DNA from: a virus | Direction: 5' to 3' (one strand) | UHGV virus genome: UHGV-1464012 | Length of the DNA: 33,909 bases | Shown here: piece by piece, positions 1 to 33,909 of the stretch | How the letters are laid out: each line of letters begins with the position of its first letter | Position numbering within the stretch: the stretch's first letter is position 1 | Program-made: the position numbers and the translations under genes | The notes under the pieces: model-generated | What the model saw: only the letters and a program-made list of their open reading frames with translations | What the model was told of the DNA's origin: nothing | The model's database searches: none

Positions 1-37
1 ATTGTATGCAAGTCCTCTCATGGTAAATTCCTCTTTG

Positions 38-352
38 TTAATTTATTCGTATGCCTGCTCTTTCTTCATCGAGTTTTTTTAGCTTGTATCGCATAGCTCT
101 TACTGAATAAATTGAGCGGCAGGTTGCAATTGCTATTTCTTCTGCGGAGAACTTACCGAAAAGTGATACTTCGGCTCTTGTCCATCGTCTTCCACGAAGT
201 CGGCTAACAATGTCAGCGCCAATCCTTGTTGCTTTCGCCATTACTGCTTTTTCAGTCCTTTCCAGTTTTTCAGCGATAACTTTAACTGGCATTGTCGCCG
301 CTACTTCGCGCAAGAAATCGACTTCCCATTTCTCCCATGGAGTCTTTTTCAT
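38..352 (-). CDS. hypothetical early-operon protein (104 aa), last gene of the leftward recombination block
   Basis: Intact ORF co-oriented with and downstream of recT and the Gp157-like gene; basic C-terminus; no family recognised. Confidence 0.4.
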   Translation of the reverse strand: MKKTPWEKWEVDFLREVAATMPVKVIAEKLERTEKAVMAKATRIGADIVSRLRGRRWTRAEVSLFGKFSAEEIAIATCRSIYSVRAMRYKLKKLDEERAGIRIN

Positions 353-363
353 TGGCGATACCG

Positions 364-852
364 TTATTTGATAAGAATTGAAGGTTTCCCAACTTTGAGT
401 TGAGCTCCGGGGATATTTATTCCTGCTTTTAGTTGGTGTTTGATTGCCAGTTTGTCGGCTTTAATTGTCGTTTCGAACTCAACGTATTCAGGAGGAAGGG
501 CGCTTGAGTCGATGATTTCTACAGTTTCTGACGGTTTGCGGATTGTTACCTGGTGAATACCTGCTCGAATCTTTTTCTTGCCAACCATTTCAAGCGATGA
601 CGCTATATATGATTTGATGCTGTCAATCTTATTTTGAATTACTGCGGCTCGCTCATTCAGCGACTTTGCCTCTTCCTTGAGGCGTTCAGCATAACCAGAT
701 TCATTTTTAATGACGGAAAGAAGTTGCTCTATTTTATCGGTAAATTCTCCTTCCATGCCTTCTATTGTGTCAGCAATCATCTCTGGTTCTAAATCTGAAT
801 CCATCAATTTTGCGTATTCATTGGCAATTTCATACAGTTTGCTCACTGGCAA
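364..852 (-). CDS. coiled-coil protein resembling the Siphovirus Gp157 family (RecT-associated, putative host-nuclease inhibitor)
   Basis: 162 aa, acidic N-terminus, coiled-coil character; immediately downstream of recT and overlapping its 3' end by 23 nt. Family assignment is from memory of the family profile, not a search. Confidence 0.4.
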   Translation of the reverse strand: MPVSKLYEIANEYAKLMDSDLEPEMIADTIEGMEGEFTDKIEQLLSVIKNESGYAERLKEEAKSLNERAAVIQNKIDSIKSYIASSLEMVGKKKIRAGIHQVTIRKPSETVEIIDSSALPPEYVEFETTIKADKLAIKHQLKAGINIPGAQLKVGKPSILIK

Positions 853-1732
853 CCTCCAGTTTCGCTTTGCATTCTGCGTAAATGGCTTGTACGTTCTGCT
901 GCAATTTCATTCCAGATGTCAGGCGATATGCTTCTGCAAAATATCGCTTCAAATCATCCATGTTTTCTGCCTGATCCATTTCATCGCAAAGAAGTTGTGC
1001 TTTATCCATTATTTCCTGCTGGCGTTTCCGTTCATCTTCGCGGATATCTTCCTCTGATTTGTGCGGCATAACTGGTTCCTGATGCATACCTTCATCTTCG
1101 TTAAGCAGGTGAATGGCATTATCCAGTCGCTGGGCTTTAGGCCAGTATTTGCTGGCGCGTTTAACTATGGTTTTACGCGCCATCTCTTCCCAGAATGTCT
1201 TCCACGGTCCATTCTTTGCCTTGCTCGTTGCTTCCACAGCTTTAATTTCTGCCAGACTCATTTCTTCAGTCAGGTAGTCACCATCTGCTGTTTTAACCGT
1301 GCAATAACCTCCAACAATAGAGCCTCGCTCACCAAATGCGTTGTATTTGTGGGTTGGTGCTGAATCAAGGCCATTTGATTCATAGGTGTCGTTTGAGTAC
1401 ACCAGTTTGCATTGCCCCCACTTAATTGATCCTGTCGATTGCGCAAGATGAAGTAATCCCATGTAACTGATATCAAGGCACACCATCCCGTCGCGAGGAA
1501 CCAGATAAGCCAGTTTGCTGGCCGGGTTTAAGGTGATGCCGATCGCCGCAACATTGATGATGGCGTTCTGTGCGCTGGTTGGATTTGCCAGTGCTGTTTT
1601 AGCCAGGTAATCGTTTTTCTGGAAATACTGAATTGCAAACTGGCTTTCCTTAGCCCATGTCACCGTCTGTTCAGTCAATGCTCCGCAGAATAACTGCTCT
1701 TGCTGTTTAACGAATTCAACGATATTGCTCAT
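830..1732 (-). CDS. recT: RecT-family single-strand annealing recombinase
   Basis: 300 aa; length and overall sequence character typical of phage RecT/Bet-type annealing proteins; sits in the pL-side early operon where lambdoid phages carry their recombinase. Confidence 0.8.
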   Translation of the reverse strand: MSNIVEFVKQQEQLFCGALTEQTVTWAKESQFAIQYFQKNDYLAKTALANPTSAQNAIINVAAIGITLNPASKLAYLVPRDGMVCLDISYMGLLHLAQSTGSIKWGQCKLVYSNDTYESNGLDSAPTHKYNAFGERGSIVGGYCTVKTADGDYLTEEMSLAEIKAVEATSKAKNGPWKTFWEEMARKTIVKRASKYWPKAQRLDNAIHLLNEDEGMHQEPVMPHKSEEDIREDERKRQQEIMDKAQLLCDEMDQAENMDDLKRYFAEAYRLTSGMKLQQNVQAIYAECKAKLEVASEQTV

Positions 1733-2040
1733 GCAGCTTCTCCATAAATATGTCTGCGTTTGAATATTGCGAAGGCATATTCAGCCTTAACTCTTTCGGT
1801 TATTGCATCCCAGAACCATTCAGCGGCTTTTTCCTGATAGTTACAGTCATCATCTTCCAGCCAGTCGATAGCGTCCTTAGTGTGTTCATCTGGTTTATAT
1901 GAGCGAAGCATTTCGCTTATTGGGTCGCAACGTTTGCAGAGGCGATCAACTTCACTGTTGATTCGTTCGTAATCTTCATCAGTAAAACTTGCGATTATTT
2001 GCGATATTTCACGCTTATCATTCAGAGTCAGAATCATCAT
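1729..2040 (-). CDS. hypothetical protein (103 aa)
   Basis: ORF whose stop overlaps the recT start (ATGA-type overlap); acidic, no family recognised. Confidence 0.5.
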   Translation of the reverse strand: MMILTLNDKREISQIIASFTDEDYERINSEVDRLCKRCDPISEMLRSYKPDEHTKDAIDWLEDDDCNYQEKAAEWFWDAITERVKAEYAFAIFKRRHIYGEAA

Positions 2041-2258
2041 CTTTCTCCTGTTCTTTGTGCTGATTGAGCATTTCTTTCATCTGACGAATGAATTCTTCGT
2101 CTGACCAGTTATCTGTAAAACTCATTTCCTGCGATACCACGGAAGGTTGATAGCTGATTTCATCGCTTTATTTGCTTCAAACCACATTTTTGAATCACCA
2201 ATAAATCTGGCTATTACTGCTTTGTTCTGTGCAGCACGAAGCATCTGGTGATTAATGG

Positions 2259-2393
2259 CTATTTCATTGCGCATAACGCCTCCAGTTGTTTCTTTGCTGC
2301 TCTGATTAATTGTTTAACTCGGCGTGATAATTCAGATTCGTGCGGGTAGAAAGCGGACATGACGCCGCTACCCGCGAGCTGAAAGTGCATCAT
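2259..2393 (-). CDS. small hypothetical protein (about 44 aa; internal start of the 79-aa track ORF)
   Basis: Internal Met preceded by AAGGAG at 7-nt spacing; the longer track ORF would run through a terminator-like hairpin at about 2455-2483. Confidence 0.35.
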   Translation of the reverse strand: MMHFQLAGSGVMSAFYPHESELSRRVKQLIRAAKKQLEALCAMK

Positions 2394-2454
2394 GGGTAAC
2401 TCCTTATATTTGATTGCATAACGAAAACGCCTCAAGTGAAGCGTTATTGGTATG

Positions 2455-2483
2455 CATATAAAAAGGCCCTCACATCGGAGGGC
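2455..2483 (-). terminator. putative rho-independent terminator (leftward transcripts)
   Basis: GCCCTC/GAGGGC stem followed by a T-run on the minus strand. Confidence 0.35.
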
Positions 2484-2578
2484 AAAGAAGATTTCCAATA
2501 ATCAGAACAAGTCGGCTCCTGTTTAGTTACGAGCGACATTGCTCCGTGTATTCACTCGTTGGAATGAATACACAGTGC

Positions 2579-2767
2579 TTATTCGTCATGCATTTCAGGT
2601 AATTCTTCGTATTCGACTCCCCATACGTTTTTACACCAACTAACTCGCTCATATCTTTTACAAAAATCAGACCACATAACTTGTGTTCCATCATGGTTTG
2701 TTATTATTTCTGTAATATCACCAACACTAACAAAACTGGTATTAGAAGCAGTTATTTTTACTTTCAT
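2579..2767 (-). CDS. hypothetical protein (62 aa)
   Basis: ORF in the leftward early operon; its stop overlaps the start of the upstream gene 2767..3057 by 1 nt. Confidence 0.4.
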   Translation of the reverse strand: MKVKITASNTSFVSVGDITEIITNHDGTQVMWSDFCKRYERVSWCKNVWGVEYEELPEMHDE

Positions 2768-3057
2768 TACTCATCTCCAAGAGCTTTGCTAATTGCTGAC
2801 TGTGCTTTCGATACTTCATCAGGATAATGGTCATTCCAGTTTTGCTTGTATGCCTTGTTTAGCATCGCTTTCAGGGCATTTAAAAGGTCAGGTGCTGCCG
2901 CTATTAGATTGGCATCTTCAATGCATTGAACTTCCTCACAGATTGCAATATACGAACGCCAGCCTGTGCCATTTTCAAGTGAGTCTGCCTGGATGATTTT
3001 AATCTCATCGCCATCCATCATTATTTCCCACTTACCTTCAGTACCTTTAAATTCCAT
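2767..3057 (-). CDS. hypothetical protein (96 aa)
   Basis: ORF with a GAGG Shine-Dalgarno about 5 nt upstream; follows a terminator-like hairpin. Confidence 0.5.
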   Translation of the reverse strand: MEFKGTEGKWEIMMDGDEIKIIQADSLENGTGWRSYIAICEEVQCIEDANLIAAAPDLLNALKAMLNKAYKQNWNDHYPDEVSKAQSAISKALGDE

Positions 3058-3077
3058 GTTAGCCTCTGTTGTTTATG

Positions 3078-3105
3078 CCAAAAATAAAGGCCGACTATGC
3101 GGCCT
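3078..3105 (-). terminator. putative rho-independent terminator (leftward)
   Basis: AGGCCG..CGGCCT stem followed by a T-rich run on the minus strand, directly after the stop of gene 3104..3733. Confidence 0.45.
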
Positions 3106-3733
3106 AGGAAGGAAGTCCAATCATCTTATTCAAATCTTCTACCCGTAAAGCAGGAAGTGCTGTACTTGCTTTATCTGCTTCTTTTGGTAGCAACTCTTTG
3201 CTTTCAGGCCAAACTTCAATAAGTCGCTTAACTGTTGTGACTGAGTTCAAAGCAGCCCATACATTTGATTCGATATCCTTTTTCTTGGCTTCAAGTTTTT
3301 GTTGCAATGCGCAGATTTCATCAAACCTTTTTGTTATTTCGTGTTCTGCGTCAAACATGCATTTATCTTTTTCTGGGGTGGGGAGCAATATATCTTCACC
3401 GTTGCCGTCTTTCCCATATGAAAGCCATCCAACCCTTCTGCCAGATACAGTCAGATAAATTGAAGTAGAACGAACATCGTATGAGTAAAATGAACATCCC
3501 ATCTTTTCAAGTTCTTCACTTATAGCTACCAACTTGGATGATAACTGATCCACTTCCTCAGTTTTCTTTTTACCGCCAAACGCAATAACTCTGGCGTCAA
3601 GTGCAAGCTGGTTCTTTAACTTTGTTACTTCTTCAAGTTCAGTGAAAACCCCAGACTTAATTAAAGCGTTACGAGCGATTTCCTCTTTCATTCTCGTAGT
3701 TAAGCGGATTGATGACATATTAATTCCTCTCAA
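3104..3733 (-). CDS. hypothetical protein (209 aa) with coiled-coil character
   Basis: Long intact ORF in the early left operon; no family recognised. Confidence 0.55.
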   Translation of the reverse strand: MRGINMSSIRLTTRMKEEIARNALIKSGVFTELEEVTKLKNQLALDARVIAFGGKKKTEEVDQLSSKLVAISEELEKMGCSFYSYDVRSTSIYLTVSGRRVGWLSYGKDGNGEDILLPTPEKDKCMFDAEHEITKRFDEICALQQKLEAKKKDIESNVWAALNSVTTVKRLIEVWPESKELLPKEADKASTALPALRVEDLNKMIGLPS

Positions 3734-3754
3734 ATAAGAAAATAAAGGCCACCA

Positions 3755-3955
3755 TCAGGCAGCCTTGTTATTCTGTTTACCAAGTTCTCTGGCAATCATT
3801 GCCGTCGTTCGTATTGCCCATTTATCGACATATTTCCCATCTTCCATTACAGGAAACATTTCTTCAGGCTTAACCATGCATTCCGATTGCAGCTTGCATC
3901 CATTGCATCGCTTGAATTGTCCACACCATTGATTTGTATCAATAGTCGTAGTCAT
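3755..3955 (-). CDS. small Cys-rich protein (66 aa), possible zinc-ribbon
   Basis: Cys pattern C-x4-C-x2-C-x5-C near the N-terminus. Confidence 0.4.
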   Translation of the reverse strand: MTTTIDTNQWCGQFKRCNGCKLQSECMVKPEEMFPVMEDGKYVDKWAIRTTAMIARELGKQNNKAA

Positions 3956-4134
3956 ACGGATAGTCCTGGTATTGTTCCATCACATCCTGAGGATGCTCTT
4001 CGAACTCTTCAAATTCTTCTTCCATATATCACCTCAAATAAGTGGTTTGCTGCCTAATTTCATTTTCTGGCGACCAACACAAGTTACACCCATTTCACTG
4101 CGTTGCTTGCGGTAGTAAATTATGTTTGTTCAGA

Positions 4135-4158
4135 CAATAAAAAACCCACCGAAGTGGG
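4135..4158 (-). terminator. putative rho-independent terminator (tL-like) downstream of gene 4159..4503
   Basis: CCCAC..GTGGG hairpin followed by a T-run on the minus strand, immediately after the stop codon. Confidence 0.45.
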
Positions 4159-4503
4159 CTATGACCATTTTTTATTTGGATTTCGTTGGTGAGCGTGATT
4201 AACAACTCTGTGCATTACATCCTCATATTTTTCATCTTCAATTTTTTCGACATCGCGAGGAAATGGTGTTGCTAATGCTTTGTCAACTTTGTCCATTGGG
4301 TCTTCATTAATCTTATATTCAGGACCATCATCTATAGCATTAAATCCAGGTGTTACACCGTTTTTTAATGCATATGCTATCCTTTTTTCCCATCTCGCTA
4401 TTCTCCTCCTGTCTCGAGATGTAAGACCTCTATCAGATACTTTTCTGTTTTGTCCGCGGTCAGGATTAACATAAATAGTCTTTTTCACCATAAGCATACT
4501 CAA
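4159..4503 (-). CDS. hypothetical protein (114 aa)
   Basis: ORF whose start overlaps the N stop by 4 nt; basic N-terminus, acidic C-terminus. Confidence 0.5.
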   Translation of the reverse strand: MSMLMVKKTIYVNPDRGQNRKVSDRGLTSRDRRRIARWEKRIAYALKNGVTPGFNAIDDGPEYKINEDPMDKVDKALATPFPRDVEKIEDEKYEDVMHRVVNHAHQRNPNKKWS

Positions 4504-4805
4504 TAAGCACCGTACGGTAGTTTACTGTACAATTTTATTTTTTGGACTGCATGTATTTTGTTTCCTAATGGGTTTGAATCTTTGTAATAAATACTTCTAT
4601 TTTTTCGAACGACTTCTTCTTTCTTCTTGCAGCAAAGGCTTCCTAGCGATGCTGCTTTGTCTGCTCTGACGCAACCAGAGAGCTTTAGCGCAATTTTTCG
4701 CGCCAGTGCTTCATTACTGCGTCGCTCGGCAATAAGTTCTGCTCTGCGAGCTTTGTAGCGGCTTTTTGCCGCACCTTTGGATTCTTTCCAGACAATGGTT
4801 ACCAT
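4500..4805 (-). CDS. N: N-like transcription antiterminator (phage-21-like arginine-rich motif)
   Basis: Internal start MVTIVWKESKGAAKSRYKARRAELIAERR is an N-terminal arginine-rich motif closely resembling the N protein of phage 21 as I recall it; AAGGAG about 6 nt upstream of this Met; positioned between the pL/OL region and the early-left genes. Confidence 0.7.
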   Translation of the reverse strand: MVTIVWKESKGAAKSRYKARRAELIAERRSNEALARKIALKLSGCVRADKAASLGSLCCKKKEEVVRKNRSIYYKDSNPLGNKIHAVQKIKLYSKLPYGAY

Positions 4806-4915
4806 GATGGTCTCCTTTAAGTGGCTTTGGCGCATGACGCGTCGAGGTGCTTATCTTCTCGATCGCTGTCTTGCAGCTGCAATTCGCGCCATCCCCAAAA
4901 CCACTCAAGTTCTGG

Positions 4916-4956
4916 TCTCAACGGTTAGGTTGAGAGTCCGTCGATGTTAAAGAGCA
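4916..4956 (-). promoter_or_regulatory. nutL (boxA TGCTCTTTAA, then boxB hairpin UCUCAAC-CUAACC-GUUGAGA on the leftward transcript)
   Basis: boxA-like decamer followed 11 nt later by a perfect 7-bp stem with a 6-nt loop, upstream of N in the transcript. Confidence 0.5.
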
Positions 4957-5002
4957 TGCCAATCTGTTCCGTTTGGCTTCCAGTGTCCTGCTGATGGCTT
5001 AA

Positions 5003-5054
5003 ATTTAAGGCTTCTTAATTTATTGGTCAAGTGTATTTTGAAGAAAACTTAATT
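5003..5054. promoter_or_regulatory. OL/pL region with P22-type operator-like sites
   Basis: 18-bp sites matching AnTnAAG-N4-CTTnAnT (ATTTAAGGCTTCTTAATT at about 5003-5020; weaker site at about 5037-5054) between the repressor terminator and N. Confidence 0.4.
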
Positions 5055-5092
5055 TTATGGGCGTGAATTTAGTTTGTCTTTGATTTTTAACG

Positions 5093-5118
5093 GGAAATAA
5101 AAAAGGGGCGAAAGCCCC
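5093..5118 (-). terminator. rho-independent terminator of the repressor transcript
   Basis: GGGGC-GAAA-GCCCC hairpin abutting the c2 stop codon, followed by a T-run on the minus strand. Confidence 0.55.
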
Positions 5119-5769
5119 TTAAGGAAGGTTTGCTAGCTTGGCATCAACGACAACGCCAATGATTTTACAGTTCCCATTGATTTCAATCATTGGGTATTGT
5201 GGATTGAGTGGTTTCAGGAATTTTCTCCCGGCATCAATAACTAACTTTTTGAATGTCGCCTCGTTTTCTCCTTCAAGTTTGGCGACTACCAGCTTTCCAT
5301 TACGTGGTTCGACTTCTGGGTCGACGAGAATAATCATCCCCTCAGGAATACTCAGTCCTGCCGGGGCAGTCATTGAGTCGCCTTTAACGTCGAGCCAAAA
5401 AGAGTCTTCAGAACAATCTACCGTTGTGTCGTACCAGTTATCTATTGCACGCCTATGATATGGCTCTACAGCTTCCATCCAACATCCTGCGCTTACCCAA
5501 CTAATTAGAGGATACGAACCTCTTGGATCATGCCTGCTGTGATAGGCAATGTTTGAAAGACTATCCTCTCCTTTCAACAGGTAATCAGGGGAGCACTGCA
5601 AAGCCTTGGCTAAGGCCAATAGGTTTTCGCCATTGGGCTCAGTTTCAGATCGCTCCCATTGGGAAATAGCAACATTAGACACGCCAACCATCTTGCCAAG
5701 GGCAGCCTGCCTAATCTTGAGTTCTTTTCTGCGAGCGCGAATACGCTCACCCATCAGTTGTGTATTCAT
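5119..5769 (-). CDS. c2: CI-type prophage repressor, P22 c2-like (N-terminal HTH, C-terminal S24 LexA-like autopeptidase domain)
   Basis: 216 aa; sequence closely matches my recollection of P22 c2 (MNTQLMGERIRARRK... through ...KIIGVVVDAKLANLP); divergent from cro with operators in between. Confidence 0.9.
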   Translation of the reverse strand: MNTQLMGERIRARRKELKIRQAALGKMVGVSNVAISQWERSETEPNGENLLALAKALQCSPDYLLKGEDSLSNIAYHSRHDPRGSYPLISWVSAGCWMEAVEPYHRRAIDNWYDTTVDCSEDSFWLDVKGDSMTAPAGLSIPEGMIILVDPEVEPRNGKLVVAKLEGENEATFKKLVIDAGRKFLKPLNPQYPMIEINGNCKIIGVVVDAKLANLP

Positions 5770-25958: not shown

Positions 25959-27374
25959 ATGGCTGCTTGGCAACAGGGTATTAATTCTGGTGGTTTTCTG
26001 GCTGGCATCGGTACGCAAAATGAGAATGCGCCAAAGGCAAGCGACATTAACGCAACGCTTGGTCTGATCCGCGAAAACAATGAACTGGCTCGCTCAGGTA
26101 CAAATAACGTTGGTCTGACCGCGTTACGTGGTCTGGCTGGAGTTGCTGATATTTACAATCAGGAACAGCAACAGAAAGCGATTAGTGCGTTCAATAAGGT
26201 TCATGCTGATGCATGGGCTTCTGGTGATCCATCGGGACTATTTAAGTTTGCCCAGGAAAATCCAGCGTTTGTTGCACAGGCACAACAGGCGTTTTCAGGT
26301 CTTAATGATCAGCAACGCAACGATATGGGCGATTTAGCCATGAGAGCTAACGTCGCTCTTTCTCAGGGACCGGAAGCCTACAGTAAATTCATTACTGACA
26401 ACAAGGACAGGTTAAATCGCGTGGGGGCGAATGCTGACTGGATGATTCAGACAGGTATCCAGAATCCAGAGCAGCTATCACACATGCTGACTACTATGTC
26501 TCTCGGTGCGCTTGGACCAGAAAAGGCGTTTGCTGTTCAGGACAAGATGGCTGGTCGTGAAATTGACCGAGGCAGACTGGCAGAGACAATCCGCAGCAAT
26601 CAGGCTGGAGAAGCACTTCAGGCGAGAGGGCAAAACCTTTCCTATCAGTCAGCAATGACTGGGCACAATATCGCAGCACAACGCTTGGCTCTGGATCAGC
26701 AAGAGTTTGGGTTTAAGATGCAGCAAGCGCAGGAAAAGGCTCAGCAGTTGATTAGCGAAGCACCTAAGCTGTCAGTAAACATGGAAAAAGGCATCGAGAC
26801 GGCTGTAAACAATGCCACAGCATCATCAAACTCAGCCAATTCCATGAGTGCGCTTGCTCAACAGTTCAGAGCAGAAAAACCAACGACAGGTTTGTTCGGT
26901 AACGCACAGAACATGTTCGCAAAACTTACCGGAAGCGATACGACATTGCGTGATTTGCGCATTCGCCAAAATGCCCTTGTTAACAGTCAGGTTCTTAAAT
27001 TCCTACCTCCCGGCCCAGCAACGGATAAAGACGTTGAGATCGTTCGACAGGGTGCGCCAACTGACATGGATAACCCTGAGACGGTCGCAAGATGGCTTGA
27101 TGCAATGGCAAACCTTGAGCGACGAAACGCGCAGTTTAATGAGTTTAAAGCCGAGTGGATGAGCGCGAATGGCAACCCTGGACAATCGCGTAATGGCGGT
27201 CAGATATTGGGGTTGGATGTTAAAAAAGGTGAATCATTGGGGAGTGCCGTTAAGCGGTATATGTCATTGAATACTGACGCAGCGCCAGCACAAGATTCGA
27301 CACCTTCAGGAGAACCACGGAATCAGGTTGGATCATATACCTCAAAATCAGGCATTCAATTTACGGTGGAATGA
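25959..27374 (+). CDS. ejection (DNA transfer) protein, gp20-like
   Basis: 471 aa (P22 gp20 is about 470 aa) in the gp20 position. Confidence 0.75.
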
Positions 27375-29506
27375 TGAAAGTTACTGCAAACGGTAAGACA
27401 TTTACCTTTCCTGATGGTACGAGCACGGAAGATATTGGCACCGCCATTGATGAGTATTTTGCTGGTCAGGCTGTTCAGCAACAAACAGTTAATCAGGCCA
27501 ATAATGCACCAACACGGGAAGAACCATCATTGATGCAACAAGCTGGCGATTGGCTCACTGGTGGTCAAAGTGCAGGGCAAATTGCAGAACAGGCTGGTCG
27601 TGGTCTGGTAAACATACCATTTGACGTATTACAGGGCGGCGCAAGTCTGATTAATGCAATCAGTCAGGGGCTTGGTGGCCCCAAGGTTTTGGATGATGTT
27701 TATCGTCCAGTAGACAGACCGACAGACCCCTACGCGCAAGCCGGTGAAACAATTGGTGGGTATCTCCTGCCAATTGGCACAGCGGCAAAAGCTGCTGGAG
27801 CGCCAGCAAAGCTCGCTGGAGATATCGGTTCCGCAGGAAACATGATTGCAGGTTCTCTTGCTGATGCTGCAAATCAGGAGGGCGACTTTGCACAAAATGC
27901 TGCCATTAACGGTGGTATCAATATTGGTGCTCAGGGGATACTTTCTGGGGCTGGAAGGATCTTAACCTCTAAATCACCTCAAGTTCTTGGTGGCGGGGCA
28001 ATAAATTCCGCTGCTGATGTTTCGAAAATGGCAAAGTCTGGTACAGGAAGAGAGATTATTGCCAGACAGTCAGCTAATGTGTCAGACGAAATAGCAAAAG
28101 CAGCAGATACTGCTGGAATAGATATCAACGCATTAACTCCTGGCATGAGATCAGGTAGTCGTGGTCTTGCTCAGGCGGAGGGGATTCTGGCGTCAAAGCC
28201 CGGAATTACACAGGATGCACACACCAAAGCATTCAGTGAAATAGAGTTGAAATTTAACTCAGCATTGGATGAGTTTGGGGCTGAAGCAGGAACTGCATCA
28301 GAAAAAAGTGCAGCCATAAAACAAAGGGTTTTGGCAAGTATTGATAAAATGAAAAATTCAGAAAAGGCCGCATGGGATAGCGTCCGCTCCACGATGCCTG
28401 ACGCAAAGGCCAGAATGTCAAACCTGAACGCTACAATTCAGGGTGATATTTTGGCTGGCATGCCGCTAACTCCTGAGATGAAACAATTCGCATCTGCTTA
28501 TGCTAAAACTGGTAAAAAAGGAATCACGTTTGATGCCATGAAGGCATGGCGAAGTAAACTTGCTGACGCAGAGCAGAAGTATATAAGGTCTGGTGAGGCA
28601 AATACGGCAAGGCGCATGGCTGAGCTTCGTGATGCAGCAACGGAAGATATGCGCATAATGGCTCAAAATGGCGGTTTTCTTGATGACTGGCAAAAAGCTA
28701 ATGATCTGTCAAAGGCAAGATTTACAGCACAAGAACAGGCTGAAGCAGCGTTTGGTAGAGACCTTGCAACTGATCAGTTGGTAACTAATGGTTCTAAGGC
28801 GTTACAGGGTTCAGCAAAAAGTGGAACAGGTCAGTTCCATAAAATAATAAGCGCCCTACCTGAGTCGGAACGCGCGCCAGCAATTGCATCAATATTACAA
28901 GATGCAATGTCGCAAGGGGTACGCGGAGGTAAGTCTGAAGAGGCTGGAATTAAGCATATCGCGACTATTCTTACCCCACAAAACGTGAAGGCAATTAGTC
29001 GATATTCTCCAGAACTTGGCAGGATTACAAGTTCATACGGAGAACTTGCACGAGCAGCAACAAAGCCACTTCGATATGTTGAACAGACAGGGCGATCTAT
29101 GCCAGCCATTAGCACTCTTGAGAATGGCCTTCATCCAGTTTTAGAGAGCGCATTGTCTGGCGCTTTTAGAACTACTGGCACTATCGCAGGGTTCTCTGGA
29201 GGAGGCGTTATTGGAGCAATAGCGGGTGGCGCTGCAGGTGGGGCAATTGATGCAATGGCAAAAGGAGCGATAGCGAAATTATCCGCAACTAGAAGCGGTC
29301 GTTACGCTATTGAAAAGGCTGTTCAAGAGGCAACAAAGGCAGTTAAGGTTGGGGCAAGTGATGGCGCATTAGCGGCGGCGGAACGCAGATTTATGGCAAA
29401 TAAGGCCGCCGTAAAAGCAATACGCGAGGCACTAGGAAACGAAGAGTTCCAGCGTTTAGCAAGAGCTGGAATTGTGGCATCGCTAAGCGGAATGGCACAG
29501 GAGTAA
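27371..29506 (+). CDS. ejection (DNA transfer) protein, gp16-like
   Basis: 711 aa, Gly/Ala-rich; last of the three ejection-protein genes. Confidence 0.75.
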
Positions 29507-29836
29507 TTAGTCATCCATGGATGGATTGAGCTTATCTCGTGTTGATGTGGCAATTTTCCCAACATTTTTCAACCAAGATTTTAAGAAGGATATGTCGTCC
29601 TTAATATCATGAATATCCTCATTCTTTATACGATCAACCTTATCCTCTAAGCTCTCTATAGAACGCTCAATGCTAGACAGAGAGATTTTTAAGTCCCCTT
29701 GCTCACGTTCCAGTGAGGATTTGAGAGCACAATATTCGTTTTCTAGAATTCCTATTTTTTTTGTTAGAGAGTGCATTCGATACTCATACACCAAACCAGA
29801 AACGACTAATGCAGCCAACAGAAACCATTCAAGCAC
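29507..29836 (-). CDS. membrane-anchored coiled-coil protein (moron; candidate superinfection-exclusion or abortive-infection factor)
   Basis: N-terminal hydrophobic helix (LEWFLLAALVVSGLV) then charged heptad-like sequence; GTG start with a strong AAGGAGG 5 nt upstream; AT-rich; convergent with the gp16-like gene. Confidence 0.6.
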   Translation of the reverse strand: MLEWFLLAALVVSGLVYEYRMHSLTKKIGILENEYCALKSSLEREQGDLKISLSSIERSIESLEDKVDRIKNEDIHDIKDDISFLKSWLKNVGKIATSTRDKLNPSMDD

Positions 29837-30204
29837 ACCAACCTCCTTAGTTTTGAGCAGGATACCAGATGATACTTTATTGGTGGAGTGGTGTGTGAAA
29901 ACGTGTCAACGACAAACCATCCACAACTTGGACGAATGATTTAGCAAAAAGTGCTATTTTTGGTGTTTGGTGTCATAGAAAAGTGAATAGCTCACTTTTC
30001 AACATTGCATGAAACTTGCAGGAAATGTGACATTACCTTATAGGTAACTTCGGCGAAAATGCAGTAAATGTGAAACGTAATGGTTTAAACATGTCGCTAA
30101 AGTGGTTGTAAGTTAGCCTCCGAAGGATTGCTGATAGCTTTGTTATAGTATTAAATGACATTTGACATAGTTGGATACTTAGCTGTGGCTATCAAGATGG
30201 AGGT

Positions 30205-30654
30205 GTGTTCATGCTTACTTGTTTTGATGTCGCCGACTACTTCCTGTCGCGGTGTGACGAGGATAGCGGTGACACAATCTCTAATTTAAAATTACAAAAG
30301 CTTGTTTATTATGCTCAGGGTTTTTCATTGGCGTTGCTTGGCGAGCCTCTTTTTCAGAATAAGATGGAAGCTTGGATGCATGGCCCTGTTGTCCCTGAGC
30401 TTTATCGCCGTTATAAACAATATGGTAATGGCGCTATCCCTTCTCCAGAGTCTTTTGATGCTGAAAAATTCAGCGAAGAACAGTTAGAGCTATTAGAAGA
30501 AGTCTGGGATGTTTTTGGGCAATTTTCTGCCTGGAAACTGAGGAACATGACACACGAAGAGTCACCATGGAGATCAAACTATATTGAGGGTGTTGGTGGT
30601 TCTGAAATTAGCTCTAAGGAGATGGCAGAGTACTTTGCAACTCGGATTAACTAA
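30205..30654 (+). CDS. Panacea-domain (DUF4065, SocA/GepA-like) putative antitoxin
   Basis: 149 aa; NLKLQKLVYYAQGFSLALLGEPLF...EAWMHGPVVPELY matches the DUF4065/Panacea signature as I recall it; GGAGG upstream of the GTG start. Confidence 0.7.
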   Translation: MFMLTCFDVADYFLSRCDEDSGDTISNLKLQKLVYYAQGFSLALLGEPLFQNKMEAWMHGPVVPELYRRYKQYGNGAIPSPESFDAEKFSEEQLELLEEVWDVFGQFSAWKLRNMTHEESPWRSNYIEGVGGSEISSKEMAEYFATRIN

Positions 30655-30658
30655 CGAG

Positions 30659-31078
30659 ATGGCAAGAAAATCTAAAAGGATTATCCCCCCTGCTGAATCT
30701 ACAGGTAAGTTAAAGTTAGGGCCGCAGTCAGGGGGGAATTCAGATCAAAAGAAACCGAAATTTTCATTCTGTTACATCCAAAGCTCTCACTGCATAACGA
30801 AATGCCAAAAAGATGAGAAAGCTGGCTTAGCTGATAAATTATACAGATTAAGTCAACTAACATGGGCAGAGATTAAGCAGCAAGGTAGGCATAAGCTTGG
30901 ATTTGAGAAGATTGCAAGGGGTGCAATTAAAGCTGGTATCCCCGGTCATATAACGGAAGACGTAGATCATTTCTTGGCTTTTAGATTTGATGATTTGAAA
31001 GCCATGGTTGGTTATCGTCTTGGATCGACATTTTTTGTTATATGGCTTGATAGAGAGTTCAACCTATACAAGCACTAA
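30659..31078 (+). CDS. putative toxin partner of the Panacea-domain protein (unknown family)
   Basis: Start 4 nt after the upstream stop (the track ORF begins earlier, at 30584); Lys-rich N-terminus; the C-terminus (MVGYRLGSTFFVIWLDREFNLYKH) loosely resembles RelE/ParE-type toxin ends; AT-rich. Confidence 0.5.
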   Translation: MARKSKRIIPPAESTGKLKLGPQSGGNSDQKKPKFSFCYIQSSHCITKCQKDEKAGLADKLYRLSQLTWAEIKQQGRHKLGFEKIARGAIKAGIPGHITEDVDHFLAFRFDDLKAMVGYRLGSTFFVIWLDREFNLYKH

Positions 31079-31080
31079 TA

Positions 31081-31107
31081 AAACCCACCGTCAGGTGGGT
31101 TTTTTAT
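31081..31107. terminator. bidirectional rho-independent terminator between the convergent toxin and ClpP-like genes
   Basis: AACCCACC-GTCA-GGTGGGTT stem flanked by an A-run upstream and a T-run downstream. Confidence 0.6.
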
Positions 31108-31130
31108 AAGGAGTAATCATGATTTACCCA

Positions 31131-31667
31131 TCAAACAACCCACCAGTTTGCCTGATTGGATGCCAGCCTTGCAGTTTTTATGGAATTAATTATGCCATGC
31201 TCAAGAGCCTTGTTAGCATCCAAAATGGTCGAGTCTGCTATCAGGGATGCCCACCTAATATGGGTTCCGATGTCGATATTGAACGTCTCAACGAAGCGAT
31301 CAAGATCGTTATCGAGGCATTTCCCGTACTCTCTCAATCTGGCATGGTCGGCGGCTGGGGAGGCAAAGCACCATAATAGAGGATGTAACAGGAATCTTGA
31401 TAATGGGTTTGCGAAACGTTCTGAGCCAGCCAGGAAAACGATATTAGCTATGGATTCAACATTGCTTATGTTGTGAGTTCTAACGGTAACAGGGAGTGAC
31501 TTAAGAAAGTTATACGCAGTAAAGCCAGCGGCAGTTTCCCCTCCCTGACTTGATATATGGATATTTAATTCAGTTGCGCCTTGAGATAATGCGGTGAGAC
31601 AGTGGTTCTGAAGTTGCCCAACAGTGGCAGTGTTAACGGGGCATAAGAAATGAATTGTGTGCAGCAT
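31131..31667 (-). CDS. ClpP-fold serine peptidase-like protein (S14-like), co-transcribed with the mnt-like gene
   Basis: 178 aa; ISSQGGETAAG parallels the ClpP INSPGG motif; candidate Ser (VESIAN), His (LLHPL) and Asp positions; start overlaps the mnt-like stop (TAATG). Confidence 0.6.
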   Translation of the reverse strand: MLHTIHFLCPVNTATVGQLQNHCLTALSQGATELNIHISSQGGETAAGFTAYNFLKSLPVTVRTHNISNVESIANIVFLAGSERFANPLSRFLLHPLLWCFASPAADHARLREYGKCLDNDLDRFVETFNIDIGTHIRWASLIADSTILDANKALEHGIINSIKTARLASNQANWWVV

Positions 31668-31915
31668 TATTTTTCATCCTTAGCATACATGGTCTTTAGC
31701 GTCTCAAGTAGCGCCTCTTTGAATTTATCAGCTTCTTGGTTAGCGAATCCTTCAAGTGAGCGAGAGCCATCAAGATTATCAACATGTTTTTGAAGGATAA
31801 GCACGATCTCTGAGTTCATTGATCTGCCGTTTTTATCCGCTTCTTGCTGAATGCGTTTCTTTAAATAGTCTGGAATCCTAATCCCCAATGGACTGATATC
31901 TCTTGCACCTTTCAT
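31667..31915 (-). CDS. mnt: Mnt-like ribbon-helix-helix repressor
   Basis: Internal start MKGARDISPLGIRIP...EADKNGRSMNSEIVLILQ; the NGRSMNSE core matches P22 Mnt as I recall it; GGAGGAG precedes the start. Confidence 0.75.
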   Translation of the reverse strand: MKGARDISPLGIRIPDYLKKRIQQEADKNGRSMNSEIVLILQKHVDNLDGSRSLEGFANQEADKFKEALLETLKTMYAKDEK

Positions 31916-31940
31916 TTCTCCTCCTGCACGCTGTGCGTAG

Positions 31941-32010
31941 CTACACAGTGTAGGCAAAAAAATTTTGACTTTAAATAAACACGGTGTAGTATTTAGTTAT
32001 CACGGTGTAG
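31941..32010. promoter_or_regulatory. divergent mnt / arc-ant control region with three copies of CACRGTGTAG
   Basis: Perfect palindrome CTACAC-A-GTGTAG (31941-31953) plus two direct copies of CACGGTGTAG (31980-31989 and 32001-32010) spaced 21 bp, between the divergent RHH repressor genes. Confidence 0.5.
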
Positions 32011-32023
32011 CAAGCGAGGGGAA

Positions 32024-32164
32024 ATGAAAGTTAGAGACATCGCTCCATTAGGGATTCGTATCCCGCCAGAGATTAAAGAAAAATTGAAGGAAAAGGCTAA
32101 GGAGGAGGGCAGGTCTTTAAATTCAGAAATAGTGCAGCGTCTTATTCGCAGCCTAAAAAGTTGA
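32024..32164 (+). CDS. arc: Arc-like ribbon-helix-helix repressor (46 aa; absent from the ORF track)
   Basis: Hand translation gives MKVRDIAPLGIRIPPEIKEKLKEKAKEEGRSLNSEIVQRLIRSLKS; the EEGRSLNSEI core parallels P22 Arc; GAGG upstream; directly upstream of ant. Confidence 0.65.
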   Translation: MKVRDIAPLGIRIPPEIKEKLKEKAKEEGRSLNSEIVQRLIRSLKS

Positions 32165-32227
32165 AGCCCCAACTGCGGGAACAGTCAGGGCTTCGGTATC
32201 GTAAAACCACGCATAGGAATTAACGAC

Positions 32228-33151
32228 ATGACGAGTGTAGCAATTGCAGAACATACAATCAACGTTCCATTCCACGGAACAAATCTCTTTTTGGTCAGCA
32301 TTAACAATGAACCTTACGTTCCTATGAAACCCGTTGTAGAAGGCATGGGTATGGTTTGGGCTGCTCAATTTGTTAAATTAAAACAGAGATTTGTCAAAGG
32401 TATTTCGGAAATCGAAATACCTTCTGCTGGCGGTAAACAGTTAATGATATGCCTTGCCTTTCGTAAGTTTGCGGCTTGGCTTTCAAGCATTCAGCCAAAC
32501 AAAGTCCGCCCTGAAATCCGCGACAAGGTAATCCAGTATCAGGAAGAGTGTGACGATGTGCTCTACGAATACTGGACTAAAGGCCATGTAGTTAACCCGC
32601 GCAAAGCTAAAAAGGCATTGCCGGGGAAAATCACCACTGAACAGCAGGAAGCCATTAAACAACTCGTCATGAGTCGCGGTCAGTCTCTTCCAAAAGAAAA
32701 ACAGGCTAAGGCGATGATCACCATGTGGTCGTCACTGAAATCCCATTTTGGATGTTCGTACAAAGAGATCAGTGAGGAGCAGTTTACCGAAGCACTATCA
32801 CTTGCAGCTCGAGTTCCACTTGAAGGTGAGTTCATTGGCAAACAAGAGAAGAAAGCAAACGAGCTTTCTGCAAAAGAAGCAAACAGCCTTGTATGGTTAT
32901 GGGATTATGCCAACCGCTCACAGGCATTATTCCGCGAACTGTATCCGGCGCTAAAACAAATTCAATCGAACTATTCCGGCAGATGTCATGACTGCGGTTA
33001 TGAGTTCTCCCGTATTATCGATATGGCGAGAGATGTTTTAATCAACCATACACGAGATGTTGATATTAATGAGCCAGACGGACCAACGAATCTTTCCGCA
33101 TGGATGAGACTTAAGAATAAAGAATTACCTCCTTCAGTACATAACTACTGA
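32228..33151 (+). CDS. ant: antirepressor (Ant-like)
   Basis: 307 aa in the immI position downstream of the Arc-like gene and followed by a terminator. Confidence 0.75.
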   Translation: MTSVAIAEHTINVPFHGTNLFLVSINNEPYVPMKPVVEGMGMVWAAQFVKLKQRFVKGISEIEIPSAGGKQLMICLAFRKFAAWLSSIQPNKVRPEIRDKVIQYQEECDDVLYEYWTKGHVVNPRKAKKALPGKITTEQQEAIKQLVMSRGQSLPKEKQAKAMITMWSSLKSHFGCSYKEISEEQFTEALSLAARVPLEGEFIGKQEKKANELSAKEANSLVWLWDYANRSQALFRELYPALKQIQSNYSGRCHDCGYEFSRIIDMARDVLINHTRDVDINEPDGPTNLSAWMRLKNKELPPSVHNY

Positions 33152-33169
33152 CAGATAACCAACGCAACG

Positions 33170-33194
33170 ACCCAGCTTCGGCTGGGTTTTTTTA
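33170..33194 (+). terminator. rho-independent terminator after ant
   Basis: ACCCAGC-TTCG-GCTGGGT hairpin followed by 7 T. Confidence 0.6.
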
Positions 33195-33251: not shown

Positions 33252-33909
33252 ATGACAGATATCACCGCAAATGTTGTGGTAAGCATGCCTTCGCAACTCT
33301 TCACTATGGCGCGTTCTTTTAAAGCTGTAGCCAATGGCAAAATTTATATCGGTAAAATTGACACTGACCCGGTAAATCCTGAAAACCAGATTCAGGCTTA
33401 TGTGGAGAACGAAGACGGCTCTCACGTTCCTGTTTCGCAACCAATCATCATTAACGCTGCTGGATATCCGGTATATAACGGACAGATTGCCAAGTTCGTA
33501 ACTGTGCAAGGTCACTCTATGGCTGTGTACGATGCATATGGTTCACAGCAGTTTTATTTTCCTAATGTGCTGAAGTATGATCCTGATCAGTTACGGCGGC
33601 AATTAGAAGACCCAGATGGAGCGAATAAATACCCAAAACTTCAGATAGCAAGATGGAGAGACAGTTATGATGTAAGAGGTTGGGGGGCTATTGGTGATGG
33701 TGTTCATGATGATACATCAGCTCTATCAGAATTACTTTCTGTTGCAACAGGTGGTGAAAAGATAGATGGGCGAGGGCTTACTTTTAAAGTATCAACTCTT
33801 CCAGATGTCAGTCGATTTAAAAATGCTCGTTTTTTATTTGAGAGAATACCGGGTCAGCCTCTTTTTTATGCTTCTGAAGATTTTATCCAGGGAGAGTTAT
33901 TTAAAATTA
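33252..33909 (+). CDS. tailspike protein, 5' part only (P22 gp9-like head-binding domain, then a divergent beta-helix domain; runs off the window)
   Basis: N-terminus [13 protein letters not shown]...[26 protein letters not shown]...[17 protein letters not shown]...NVLKYDPDQ resembles the P22 tailspike head-binding domain; later [15 protein letters not shown] is pectate-lyase-like; GGAG upstream. Confidence 0.85.

Follow-up and report, generated by a model that had tools for sequence, protein, structure and literature searches.

The interval studied here, positions 29507-32227, belongs to UHGV virus genome UHGV-1464012, a stretch of 33,909 nucleotides (nt) that we refer to as the window. The window is that of a P22-like prophage or phage, whose long rightward morphogenesis block ends with homologues of P22 gene 20 (25959-27374, plus strand) and gene 16 (27371-29506, plus strand). 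The latter, an open reading frame (ORF) of 711 amino acids (aa) for the DNA transfer/ejection protein, is the conserved left flank of the interval. The conserved right flank is the tailspike gene, gene 9, which runs off the window after the part encoding its N-terminal head-binding domain (33253-33909, plus strand). An initial annotation had described the interval as an AT-rich accessory island, of the kind expected of a moron or defence hotspot, in place of the sieA/hkcC region of P22. We regard 29507-32227 as probably the 'ant moron' of a P22-like, HK620-related Escherichia coli prophage, bounded by the last of the DNA-ejection genes and by the tailspike gene. The name was given by Villafane et al. 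2008 (PMC2629481) to a non-structural region of variable length, of which they counted 'ten types in sixteen genomes'.

Gene content and the immI switch

Upstream of arc and ant, the interval holds three short units of opposing orientation, as had been described: hkcB (minus strand), panA-panT (plus strand), and mnt followed by a ClpP-like gene (minus strand). The report that immI-like genes of P22 are retained is likewise upheld. The 82-aa ribbon-helix-helix (RHH) repressor encoded by mnt (31667-31915, minus strand; PF03869) is 33% identical to P22 Mnt over its whole length, and the 46-aa product of arc (32024-32164, plus strand; PF03869, E 5e-13) is 43% identical to P22 Arc. The antisense RNA sar (32159-32226, minus strand; Rfam RF00262) is matched over its full length with 84.6 bits, the gathering score being 43 (E 1.6e-17), and carries a minus-strand terminator (32163-32194, dG -25.8) whose hairpin falls between arc and ant. 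The antirepressor gene ant (32228-33151, plus strand) encodes P22_AR_N and P22_AR_C domains in a protein 55% identical to P22 Ant, and is followed by its own terminator (33169-33188, plus strand, dG -14.5). Since mnt, arc, a full-length sar and ant are all present, and in an order identical to that of P22 record BK000583, the switch is a complete P22 immI. Because mnt and arc are immI genes that sit inside 29507-32227, the true cargo is 29507-31667.

The region from which mnt and arc diverge (31941-32010) contains a Pant-like TTGACT-16-TAGTAT site and coincides in position with Omnt, Oarc, Pant and Pmnt of P22, and presumably acts as a divergent promoter/operator. A perfect palindrome of operator-like appearance, CTACACAGTGTAG, is found at 31941-31953, and two copies of CACGGTGTAG, 21 nt apart (31980 and 32001), flank the promoter-like site.

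It had further been claimed that strong terminators separate the units, and this is the case at one junction and not at another. A bidirectional intrinsic terminator at ~31080-31107 (dG -15.9 kcal/mol on the plus and -15.4 on the minus strand; z -3.7 and -4.4), with U-runs on both strands, marks where the panAT module meets the mnt operon. It stands behind both panT and the ClpP-like gene, and the mnt-ClpP-like unit has the immI promoter region at its other end. The convergent junction of gene 16 and hkcB, on the other hand, has neither a spacer nor a hairpin (z +0.96 and -0.19), and between hkcB and panA a terminator is unneeded because the two genes are divergent. Three further, antisense ORFs, at 29670-29939 (plus strand), 30033-30161 (minus) and 31119-31376 (plus), were taken as spurious, having no family match and overlapping better-supported genes or conserved intergenic DNA.

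Variation among relatives, mosaic joints and base composition

The initial annotation had proposed a comparison of relatives as its own test, and this decides in favour of variable gene content at a fixed position: nine comparison loci (P22, HK620, Emek, phiv205-1 and five E. coli prophages) hold different cargo between gene 16 and gene 9. Reading from gene 16 up to the leftward mnt, this cargo is sieA and orf59a in P22; hkcB, hkcC, orf59a and a ClpP gene in CE10; hkcB, panAT and an RHH gene in STEC346; and a gp14-type gene, panAT, orf61, orf69 and orf77 in Emek. HK620 has hkcB, hkcC and remnants of mnt and ant. None of the cargo genes has a structural role.

In a census of 5,426 complete E. 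coli genomes, the tailspike head-binding segment was present in 1,130, hkcB in 117, the window's panAT in 48 (all at least 99% identical) and the ClpP-like gene in 128 (at least 95% identical). Such presence and absence between conserved, syntenic flanks bears out the moron interpretation. Adjacent copies of panAT and the ClpP-like gene occur in 10 genomes, six of which are closely similar Res13 strains. As one piece (at least 80%), 29300-32400 is found in no phage record and in none of the 5,426 genomes; each module is nonetheless 97-100% identical to copies elsewhere. To judge from these sequence comparisons, the modules assort independently among phages and E. coli genomes.

Pairwise BLAST places joints between the modules at 29834-29867, a segment common to HK620, Emek, phiv205-1 and even P22; at the terminator hairpin, where loci of the panAT type match up to 31105-31108 and the match to CE10 starts at 31082; and at the sar region, 32157-32251. 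The first of these is a 34-bp conserved leader (minus strand), TGGTATCCTGCTCAAAACTAAGGAGGTTGGTGTG, in which the Shine-Dalgarno sequence AAGGAGG is joined by the GTG start codon of the leftward gene. Across the window and the nine comparison loci it shows 0-2 mismatches. To its left stand four unrelated genes (hkcB, the Emek gp14-type gene, the phiv205-1-type gene and P22 sieA) and to its right two unrelated sequences; it looks like a fixed recombination joint or an expression cassette. The leftward gene varies in step with the type of gene 16: HK620-type gp16 is accompanied by hkcB, the Emek/PA45B type by a gp14-like gene and the P22 type by sieA, and gene 16 and the leftward gene abut without a spacer. 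This correspondence may be simple linkage, or may reflect a functional pairing with the ejection protein, the known target of SieA. Within ant, the N-terminal two-thirds (32252-32818) belong to a rare allele for which STEC346 (88%) offers the one match in the compared loci, and the sequence from 32819 on is widely shared, which points to an intragenic mosaic joint at ~32819.

As to base composition, the assertion that the interval is more AT-rich than the flanking morphogenesis genes holds on the left and fails on the right. The interval has a GC content of 41.4%, as against 49.6% for 5500-29506; windows of 2721 nt inside that block average 49.9% (standard deviation 1.5%, minimum 47.1%), and gene 16 itself has 47.8%. 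The step is abrupt at the gene 16 stop codon, from 51% (29300-29499) to 37% (29500-29699) in 200-nt windows. A difference from the left-neighbouring phage genes is what one would expect of a moron. The right side shows none: ant has 43.5% GC and the 5' part of the tailspike gene (33253-33909) 41.4%, and because both are equally AT-rich, 32227 is no compositional boundary. The island is thus AT-rich relative to gene 16 and not relative to its right flank. Of all windows of the same size across the whole window, 5% have a GC content as low or lower. Positions 1-5500, with mostly leftward ORFs, are as AT-rich as the interval (42% GC); a low GC content is a mark of this phage's non-morphogenesis DNA as a whole.

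AT-richness could also be a product of relaxed selection on decaying junk, a collection of insertion remnants without function. HK620 and other relatives do have degraded mnt/ant remnants at this place, no promoters are predicted for hkcB or panAT, and PanT is non-toxic in a published test considered below. We find such an account very improbable, given that every ORF of the interval is intact, and that identity is at least 99% among the 48 genomes with panAT and at least 95% among the 128 with the ClpP-like gene. Between orders, furthermore, where members of the PanT and ClpP-like families are still 40-50% identical, the putative catalytic residues do not vary. P22-like phages, epsilon34 and CUS-3 among them, retain hkcB at 50% identity, translational coupling is preserved, and the AlphaFold2 (AF2) models are confident.

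The three cargo modules

The hkcB homologue (29507-29836, minus strand) occupies the sieA position of P22 and encodes 109 aa, in which a hydrophobic anchor at the N-terminus is followed by a coiled coil. Its product is 98% identical to that of HK620 hkcB, where the gene also directly follows gene 16 (the gene 16/hkcB region, 29000-29867, has 96.8% nt identity to HK620), and ~50% identical to those of epsilon34 gene 14, CUS-3 hkcB and a SEN22 ORF. Villafane et al. 2008 (PMC2629481) put epsilon34 gene 14 in a similar position. The PHROG match of hkcB, phrog_5962, is a function-unknown group. That sieA has been replaced in this phage, as had been stated, is correct: sieA is absent, and BLASTP returns no alignment between hkcB and P22 SieA at E <= 100. 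We also rejected hkcB as a SieA variant, as there is no such alignment, its one hydrophobic segment is N-terminal (Kyte-Doolittle maximum 2.16, residues 2-16) and genomic position is all that the two have in common; SieA of types A-C is a multi-pass membrane protein with an FxRYPxEAxxFNK motif. Leavitt et al. 2024 (PMC10883804) found sieA in just 22 of 66 P22-like phages, always between genes 16 and 9, which suggests that hkcB is an old alternative occupant of this slot. We suggest that hkcB encodes a small bitopic inner-membrane coiled-coil protein and, arguing from position, that this is most likely an alternative superinfection-exclusion or membrane-acting factor.

Of the next two genes, panA (30211-30654, plus strand) encodes a stand-alone Panacea (SocA/DUF4065) domain of 147 aa (PF13274, E 1.9e-24, 87 bits against a cut-off of 25.7), identical at 146 of 147 aa to WP_089622957.1, an E. 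coli PanA from the tested list of Kurata et al. The ATG of panT (30659-31078, plus strand) lies 4 nt past the panA stop codon, and the gene encodes a 139-aa RNase-like partner of RelE/YafQ fold (BECR). Against the Emek proteins YP_006560565/566, PanA is identical at 145 of 147 aa and PanT at 137 of 139. This Emek pair and one E. coli pair were placed in toxin cluster pT1/T1, predicted 'mRNase', by Kurata et al. 2022 (PMC8832971). The window's panAT is thus a catalogued, unvalidated PanAT, and a predicted toxin-antitoxin (TA) pair.

PanT belongs to a family of 135-145 aa that is spread over Proteobacteria and beyond. Neither it nor 32 relatives match any Pfam or NCBIfam entry, hence no curated RelE, ParE, YafQ or HigB family, and the family profile finds nothing among PDB sequences even at E <= 10. 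Homology emerged via fold comparison, in which PanT shows the RelE-like alpha/beta fold, and via the PADLOC NsnC model only, whose C-terminal 100 residues are matched by 32 of 32 family members (best E 1.9e-10). This C-terminal domain of NsnC, PB-BECR1, is a YafQ-like RNase with an H-R-H triad and the proposed effector of Menshen (2025; PMC12065111). In the PanT alignment H78, R109, R120, Y137 and H139 are invariant or near-invariant, with Y137-x-H139 at the C-terminus; these residues are consistent with the PB-BECR1 triad and form a putative catalytic set. A Menshen (NsnABC) system as such was rejected, given that the NsnC C-terminal domain alone was matched and the interval ORFs gave no NsnA or NsnB match.

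The toxin ORFs tested by Kurata et al. overlap panA by 62 nt (Emek) and 20 nt (E. coli) in their table (PMC8832971), which implies N-terminal extensions of 22 residues for the 161-aa Emek ORF and probably ~8 for that of E. coli. The 161-aa Emek annotation (our locus L002, 3260-3745) and the E. coli one start upstream (window region 30584-30658). The family alignment and RefSeq calls lead us to favour the ATG at 30659, and thus 139 aa, as the panT start. In three look-ups by exact protein, distant PanT homologues (Solidesulfovibrio, Aeromonas and a metagenome contig) were all encoded directly behind a 143-145-aa Panacea gene, so that the panA-panT pairing is conserved; panAT is also found in a non-phage chromosomal context. 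E. coli PA45B (L107, 3153-3575) has an intact 140-aa PanT allele, unannotated in RefSeq, between panA and a ClpP-like gene. This panAT allele is diverged from the window's (71% aa identity for PanA, 52% for PanT), and its slot is the same.

The intergenic region 29868-30210 travels with the panAT module, sequence from 29834 onward being 99% identical to Emek and phiv205-1, and a sigma-70 consensus scan of it gave no match. Between hkcB and panA it contains the direct repeats TGCAGGAAATGTGA (30017-30030) and TGCAGTAAATGTGA (30060-30073), which could be a candidate regulatory site for panAT; PanA itself has no DNA-binding domain.

The third module is a ClpP1-type paralogue of 178 aa (31131-31667, minus strand; PF00574, E 2e-11). 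Its ATG overlaps the mnt stop codon (TAATG), which makes it the distal gene of the maintenance-repressor operon, and by this arrangement it appears to be translationally coupled to mnt. The protein is N-terminally truncated, beginning at profile position 37, and so lacks the axial N-terminal loop. Ser72 and His95 in the 178-aa numbering (Ser71 and His94 in one family alignment, where the query is without Met1) are invariant in the family and aligned with the catalytic Ser and His of ClpP, and the column of ClpP Asp171 is variable across the family. The AF2 model has a pLDDT of 93.6. Against the PDB, the family profile finds 9UXT at E 3e-58 and ordinary ClpPs at only ~1e-13 to 1e-15, and a full-length comparison gives 40% identity between 9UXT and the window protein (E 4e-45). 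This structure is that of PpClpP1 of Pseudomonas plecoglossicida, which assembles into a homotetradecamer whose pore measures 42.7 A (Chen et al. 2026, PMC12900304). PpClpP1 does not bind ClpX, needs its Ser and His, has Pro at the third triad position and is a weak peptidase; together with the housekeeping ClpP it forms a heterotetradecamer that keeps ClpX binding and is slightly more active (PMC12900304). The paper makes no mention of prophages (PMC12900304).

All six family members looked up outside the Pseudomonas putida group (11 loci) are lone prophage genes, mostly antisense to late genes, in settings that include P2-like prophages, the lysis-terminase junctions of Klebsiella and Leclercia lambdoid prophages, a Pseudomonas tail region and Stutzerimonas. 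In the Stutzerimonas prophage (L009, 3118-4558), a helix-turn-helix (HTH) repressor gene and, behind it, the ClpP-like gene diverge from an Arc-like RHH gene, behind which come two P22_AR_N antirepressor genes; the immI-like layout thus recurs there with non-homologous parts. The P. putida-group copies (L083, 3094-4043, and L098, 3095-4043) are chromosomal and overlap the end of a PF04120 'low-affinity iron permease' family gene by 4 nt.

Database labels would make this gene a head-maturation (prohead) protease and the island partly structural: its best PHROG is phrog_94, 'head maturation protease' (E 7e-21), NCBIfam Clp_rel_HeadMat matches at E 5e-13, and the phiv205-1 annotation agrees. The Clp_rel_HeadMat score, however, is 49.3 bits against a cut-off of 120, and the gene lies antisense to the late operon, coupled to mnt and outside the head-gene cluster. 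It is absent from P22 and HK620, is found in just 128 genomes as against 1,130 with the tailspike, and has as its closest solved relative a cellular-type ClpP paralogue. P22-type procapsids, moreover, mature by scaffold exit, with no protease. Being below the curated threshold and unfit in gene position, the head-protease identity was rejected, and we hold it to be extremely unlikely.

By analogy with PpClpP1, the ClpP1-type subunit would form wide-pored tetradecamers with no ClpX docking of their own and could co-assemble with host ClpP, thereby altering host Clp proteolysis in the lysogen. A more specific form of this idea, which we put forward as speculative and on the whole unlikely, is that it is a lysogenic-conversion factor, produced while the prophage is repressed, whose mixed tetradecamers with E. 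coli ClpP would have a widened pore and an altered choice of phage or host substrates. Among the targets might be labile antitoxins or, in a superinfecting phage, its replication proteins or antirepressors, with the Panacea protein possibly a SocA-like adaptor. Were this true, the 'second ClpP' genes now called housekeeping paralogues would have a widespread mobile branch as prophage cargo.

Interpretation and likeness to known systems

Our conclusion, held with moderate confidence, is that the best explanation of the locus as a whole is an ant moron rebuilt by recombination at short joints, with an intact immI and three independently acquired cargo modules. The ant moron has been described as the sole moron site of the P22-like late operon (Villafane et al. 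2008, PMC2629481), and the locus would be the one place in that operon which tolerates non-structural cargo, its joints being short and conserved. By position and orientation, hkcB and the mnt-ClpP-like unit would be expressible while the prophage is repressed; panAT, which has the orientation of the late operon, may be expressed with it. We picture panA-panT as a type II-like pair in which PanT, an RNase of RelE/YafQ fold, would be held in check by direct binding of PanA, most likely serving phage-triggered translation shutoff (abortive infection) or as an addiction module. A later proposal by the Kurata group, that Panacea is a sensor of an unknown trigger, fits a phage-activated role for panAT. 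The gene map, the homologies, the folds, the mosaic joints and the presence/absence polymorphism come directly from the data; expression in the lysogen, all biochemical activities and any benefit against other phages, and with it a defence role of the locus, are inferred.

Several points weigh against this interpretation. Both pT1/T1 pairs, near-identical to the window's (at least 98.5%), were 'not toxic' in E. coli BW25113 (PMC8832971), so that for near-identical alleles published evidence shows neither growth inhibition nor neutralisation by PanA. A sigma-70 consensus promoter search found none for hkcB or panA, and panAT lies on the late-operon strand, where late transcription, and not the lysogen, may be its main reader. 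The exclusion role suggested for hkcB is argued from position only. As for the ClpP-like protein, its third triad position is Ser and not Asp, the activity of PpClpP1 is low, and the chromosomal location of the P. putida-group members means that the family is not intrinsically a phage function. PADLOC gave no match for this protein and no complete known defence system in the interval, and a literature search turned up nothing relevant on a prophage ClpP-like defence or exclusion factor. Lastly, the low GC content reaches beyond the cargo genes.

In one alternative the cargo would serve the phage and not the host, with panAT as an addiction module against prophage loss and the ClpP paralogue tuning the lysis-lysogeny switch, for example via turnover of Ant, repressor or antitoxins, and with no role in exclusion. 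In its favour, TA pairs are the classical kind of addiction module, and the ClpP-like gene is translationally coupled to mnt within the mnt operon. The unrelated Stutzerimonas prophage repeats the arrangement of a ClpP-like gene behind a repressor that diverges from arc-ant, and the PpClpP1-ClpP2 heterocomplex modestly raises ClpXP activity (PMC12900304). The ClpP family, however, also stands alone at lysis/terminase junctions or among tail genes, in lambdoid and P2-like prophages with no immI nearby, and panAT is found in non-phage chromosomal contexts; the non-toxicity of PanT when tested weakens an addiction role too. We consider this alternative doubtful.

A second possibility would connect two of the modules, with PanA as a SocA-like adaptor that hands PanT, or else a phage protein, to a Clp protease of which the prophage subunit is a part. 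Such a mechanism would account for PanT looking harmless in a heterologous test, and the founding Panacea protein, SocA, does serve as an adaptor of ClpXP; the window and 10 E. coli genomes have panAT and the ClpP-like gene side by side, and the diverged panAT allele of PA45B also sits beside a ClpP-like gene. Against this, in 38 of the 48 genomes with panAT no ClpP-like gene stands beside it, and in CE10 the ClpP-like gene occurs in the absence of panAT. Nor is there a ClpP-like gene near panAT in Solidesulfovibrio, Aeromonas or the metagenome contig, or a panA near the ClpP-like gene in the P2-like, lambdoid and Pseudomonas contexts, and neutralisation in validated PanAT pairs is independent of ClpXP and Lon (Kurata et al.). 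Obligatory coupling of PanA and ClpP was rejected, as the two genes mostly occur apart, and the adaptor mechanism in general strikes us as improbable.

That the locus is a moron is right but already published (Villafane et al. 2008, PMC2629481), and since it is a textbook moron hotspot its existence teaches little in itself. What appears new, at the descriptive level and going by sequence, is the combination of cargo, the link between PanT of cluster T1 and the Menshen effector, and the frequency of PpClpP1-type subunits as prophage morons. The first link places T1, the largest uncharacterised Panacea-associated 'toxin' cluster, in a prophage hotspot. By the second, PpClpP1-type paralogues, whose structure was solved recently and which have been regarded as a drug target on the chromosome, emerge as common single-gene prophage morons of Enterobacterales; in the window the gene lies within the very operon that maintains lysogeny. 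The locus also offers a clean case of module exchange at very short joints, namely the 34-bp leader, the terminator hairpin and the sar region. The cargo is only partly understood, and the ClpP paralogue in the mnt operon is its most interesting loose end.

Among known systems, the immI-sieA region of P22, itself an ant moron, shares with the window its place between gene 16 and gene 9, the mnt/arc/sar/ant switch, the divergent promoters and the highly variable content. Both also have leftward genes behind gene 16 and downstream of mnt. The window differs from P22 in having no sieA, hkcC or orf59a; hkcB stands in the sieA slot, panAT in that of hkcC and the ClpP paralogue in that of orf59a. 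HK620 has a gene 16-hkcB segment of 96.8% nt identity and the same 34-bp leader, but goes on with hkcC and mnt/ant remnants, where the window continues with panAT, the ClpP-like gene and a complete immI.

For panAT, the closest likeness is to the T1 pair of Emek (PMC8832971), which has the same proteins, the same antitoxin-first order and the same stand-alone Panacea domain; that cluster is a predicted and not a validated TA system, and the window toxin is read as 139 aa in place of the annotated 161. PB-BECR1 of the Menshen protein NsnC (PMC12065111) appears homologous to PanT, with its YafQ/RelE-like fold and conserved His-Arg-His set. Unlike NsnC, PanT is free-standing, lacks inPIN and has a Panacea protein as partner instead of an ABC ATPase. 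The ClpP-like protein, finally, is of the same family and length as PpClpP1 (PMC12900304), and shares with it the missing N-terminal axial loop, the conserved Ser and His and a third position other than Asp, which is Ser in the window and Pro in PpClpP1. Its P. putida-group relatives (~40% identical) are chromosomal, beside an iron-permease-family gene, whereas the window's copy is prophage-borne and part of the mnt operon.

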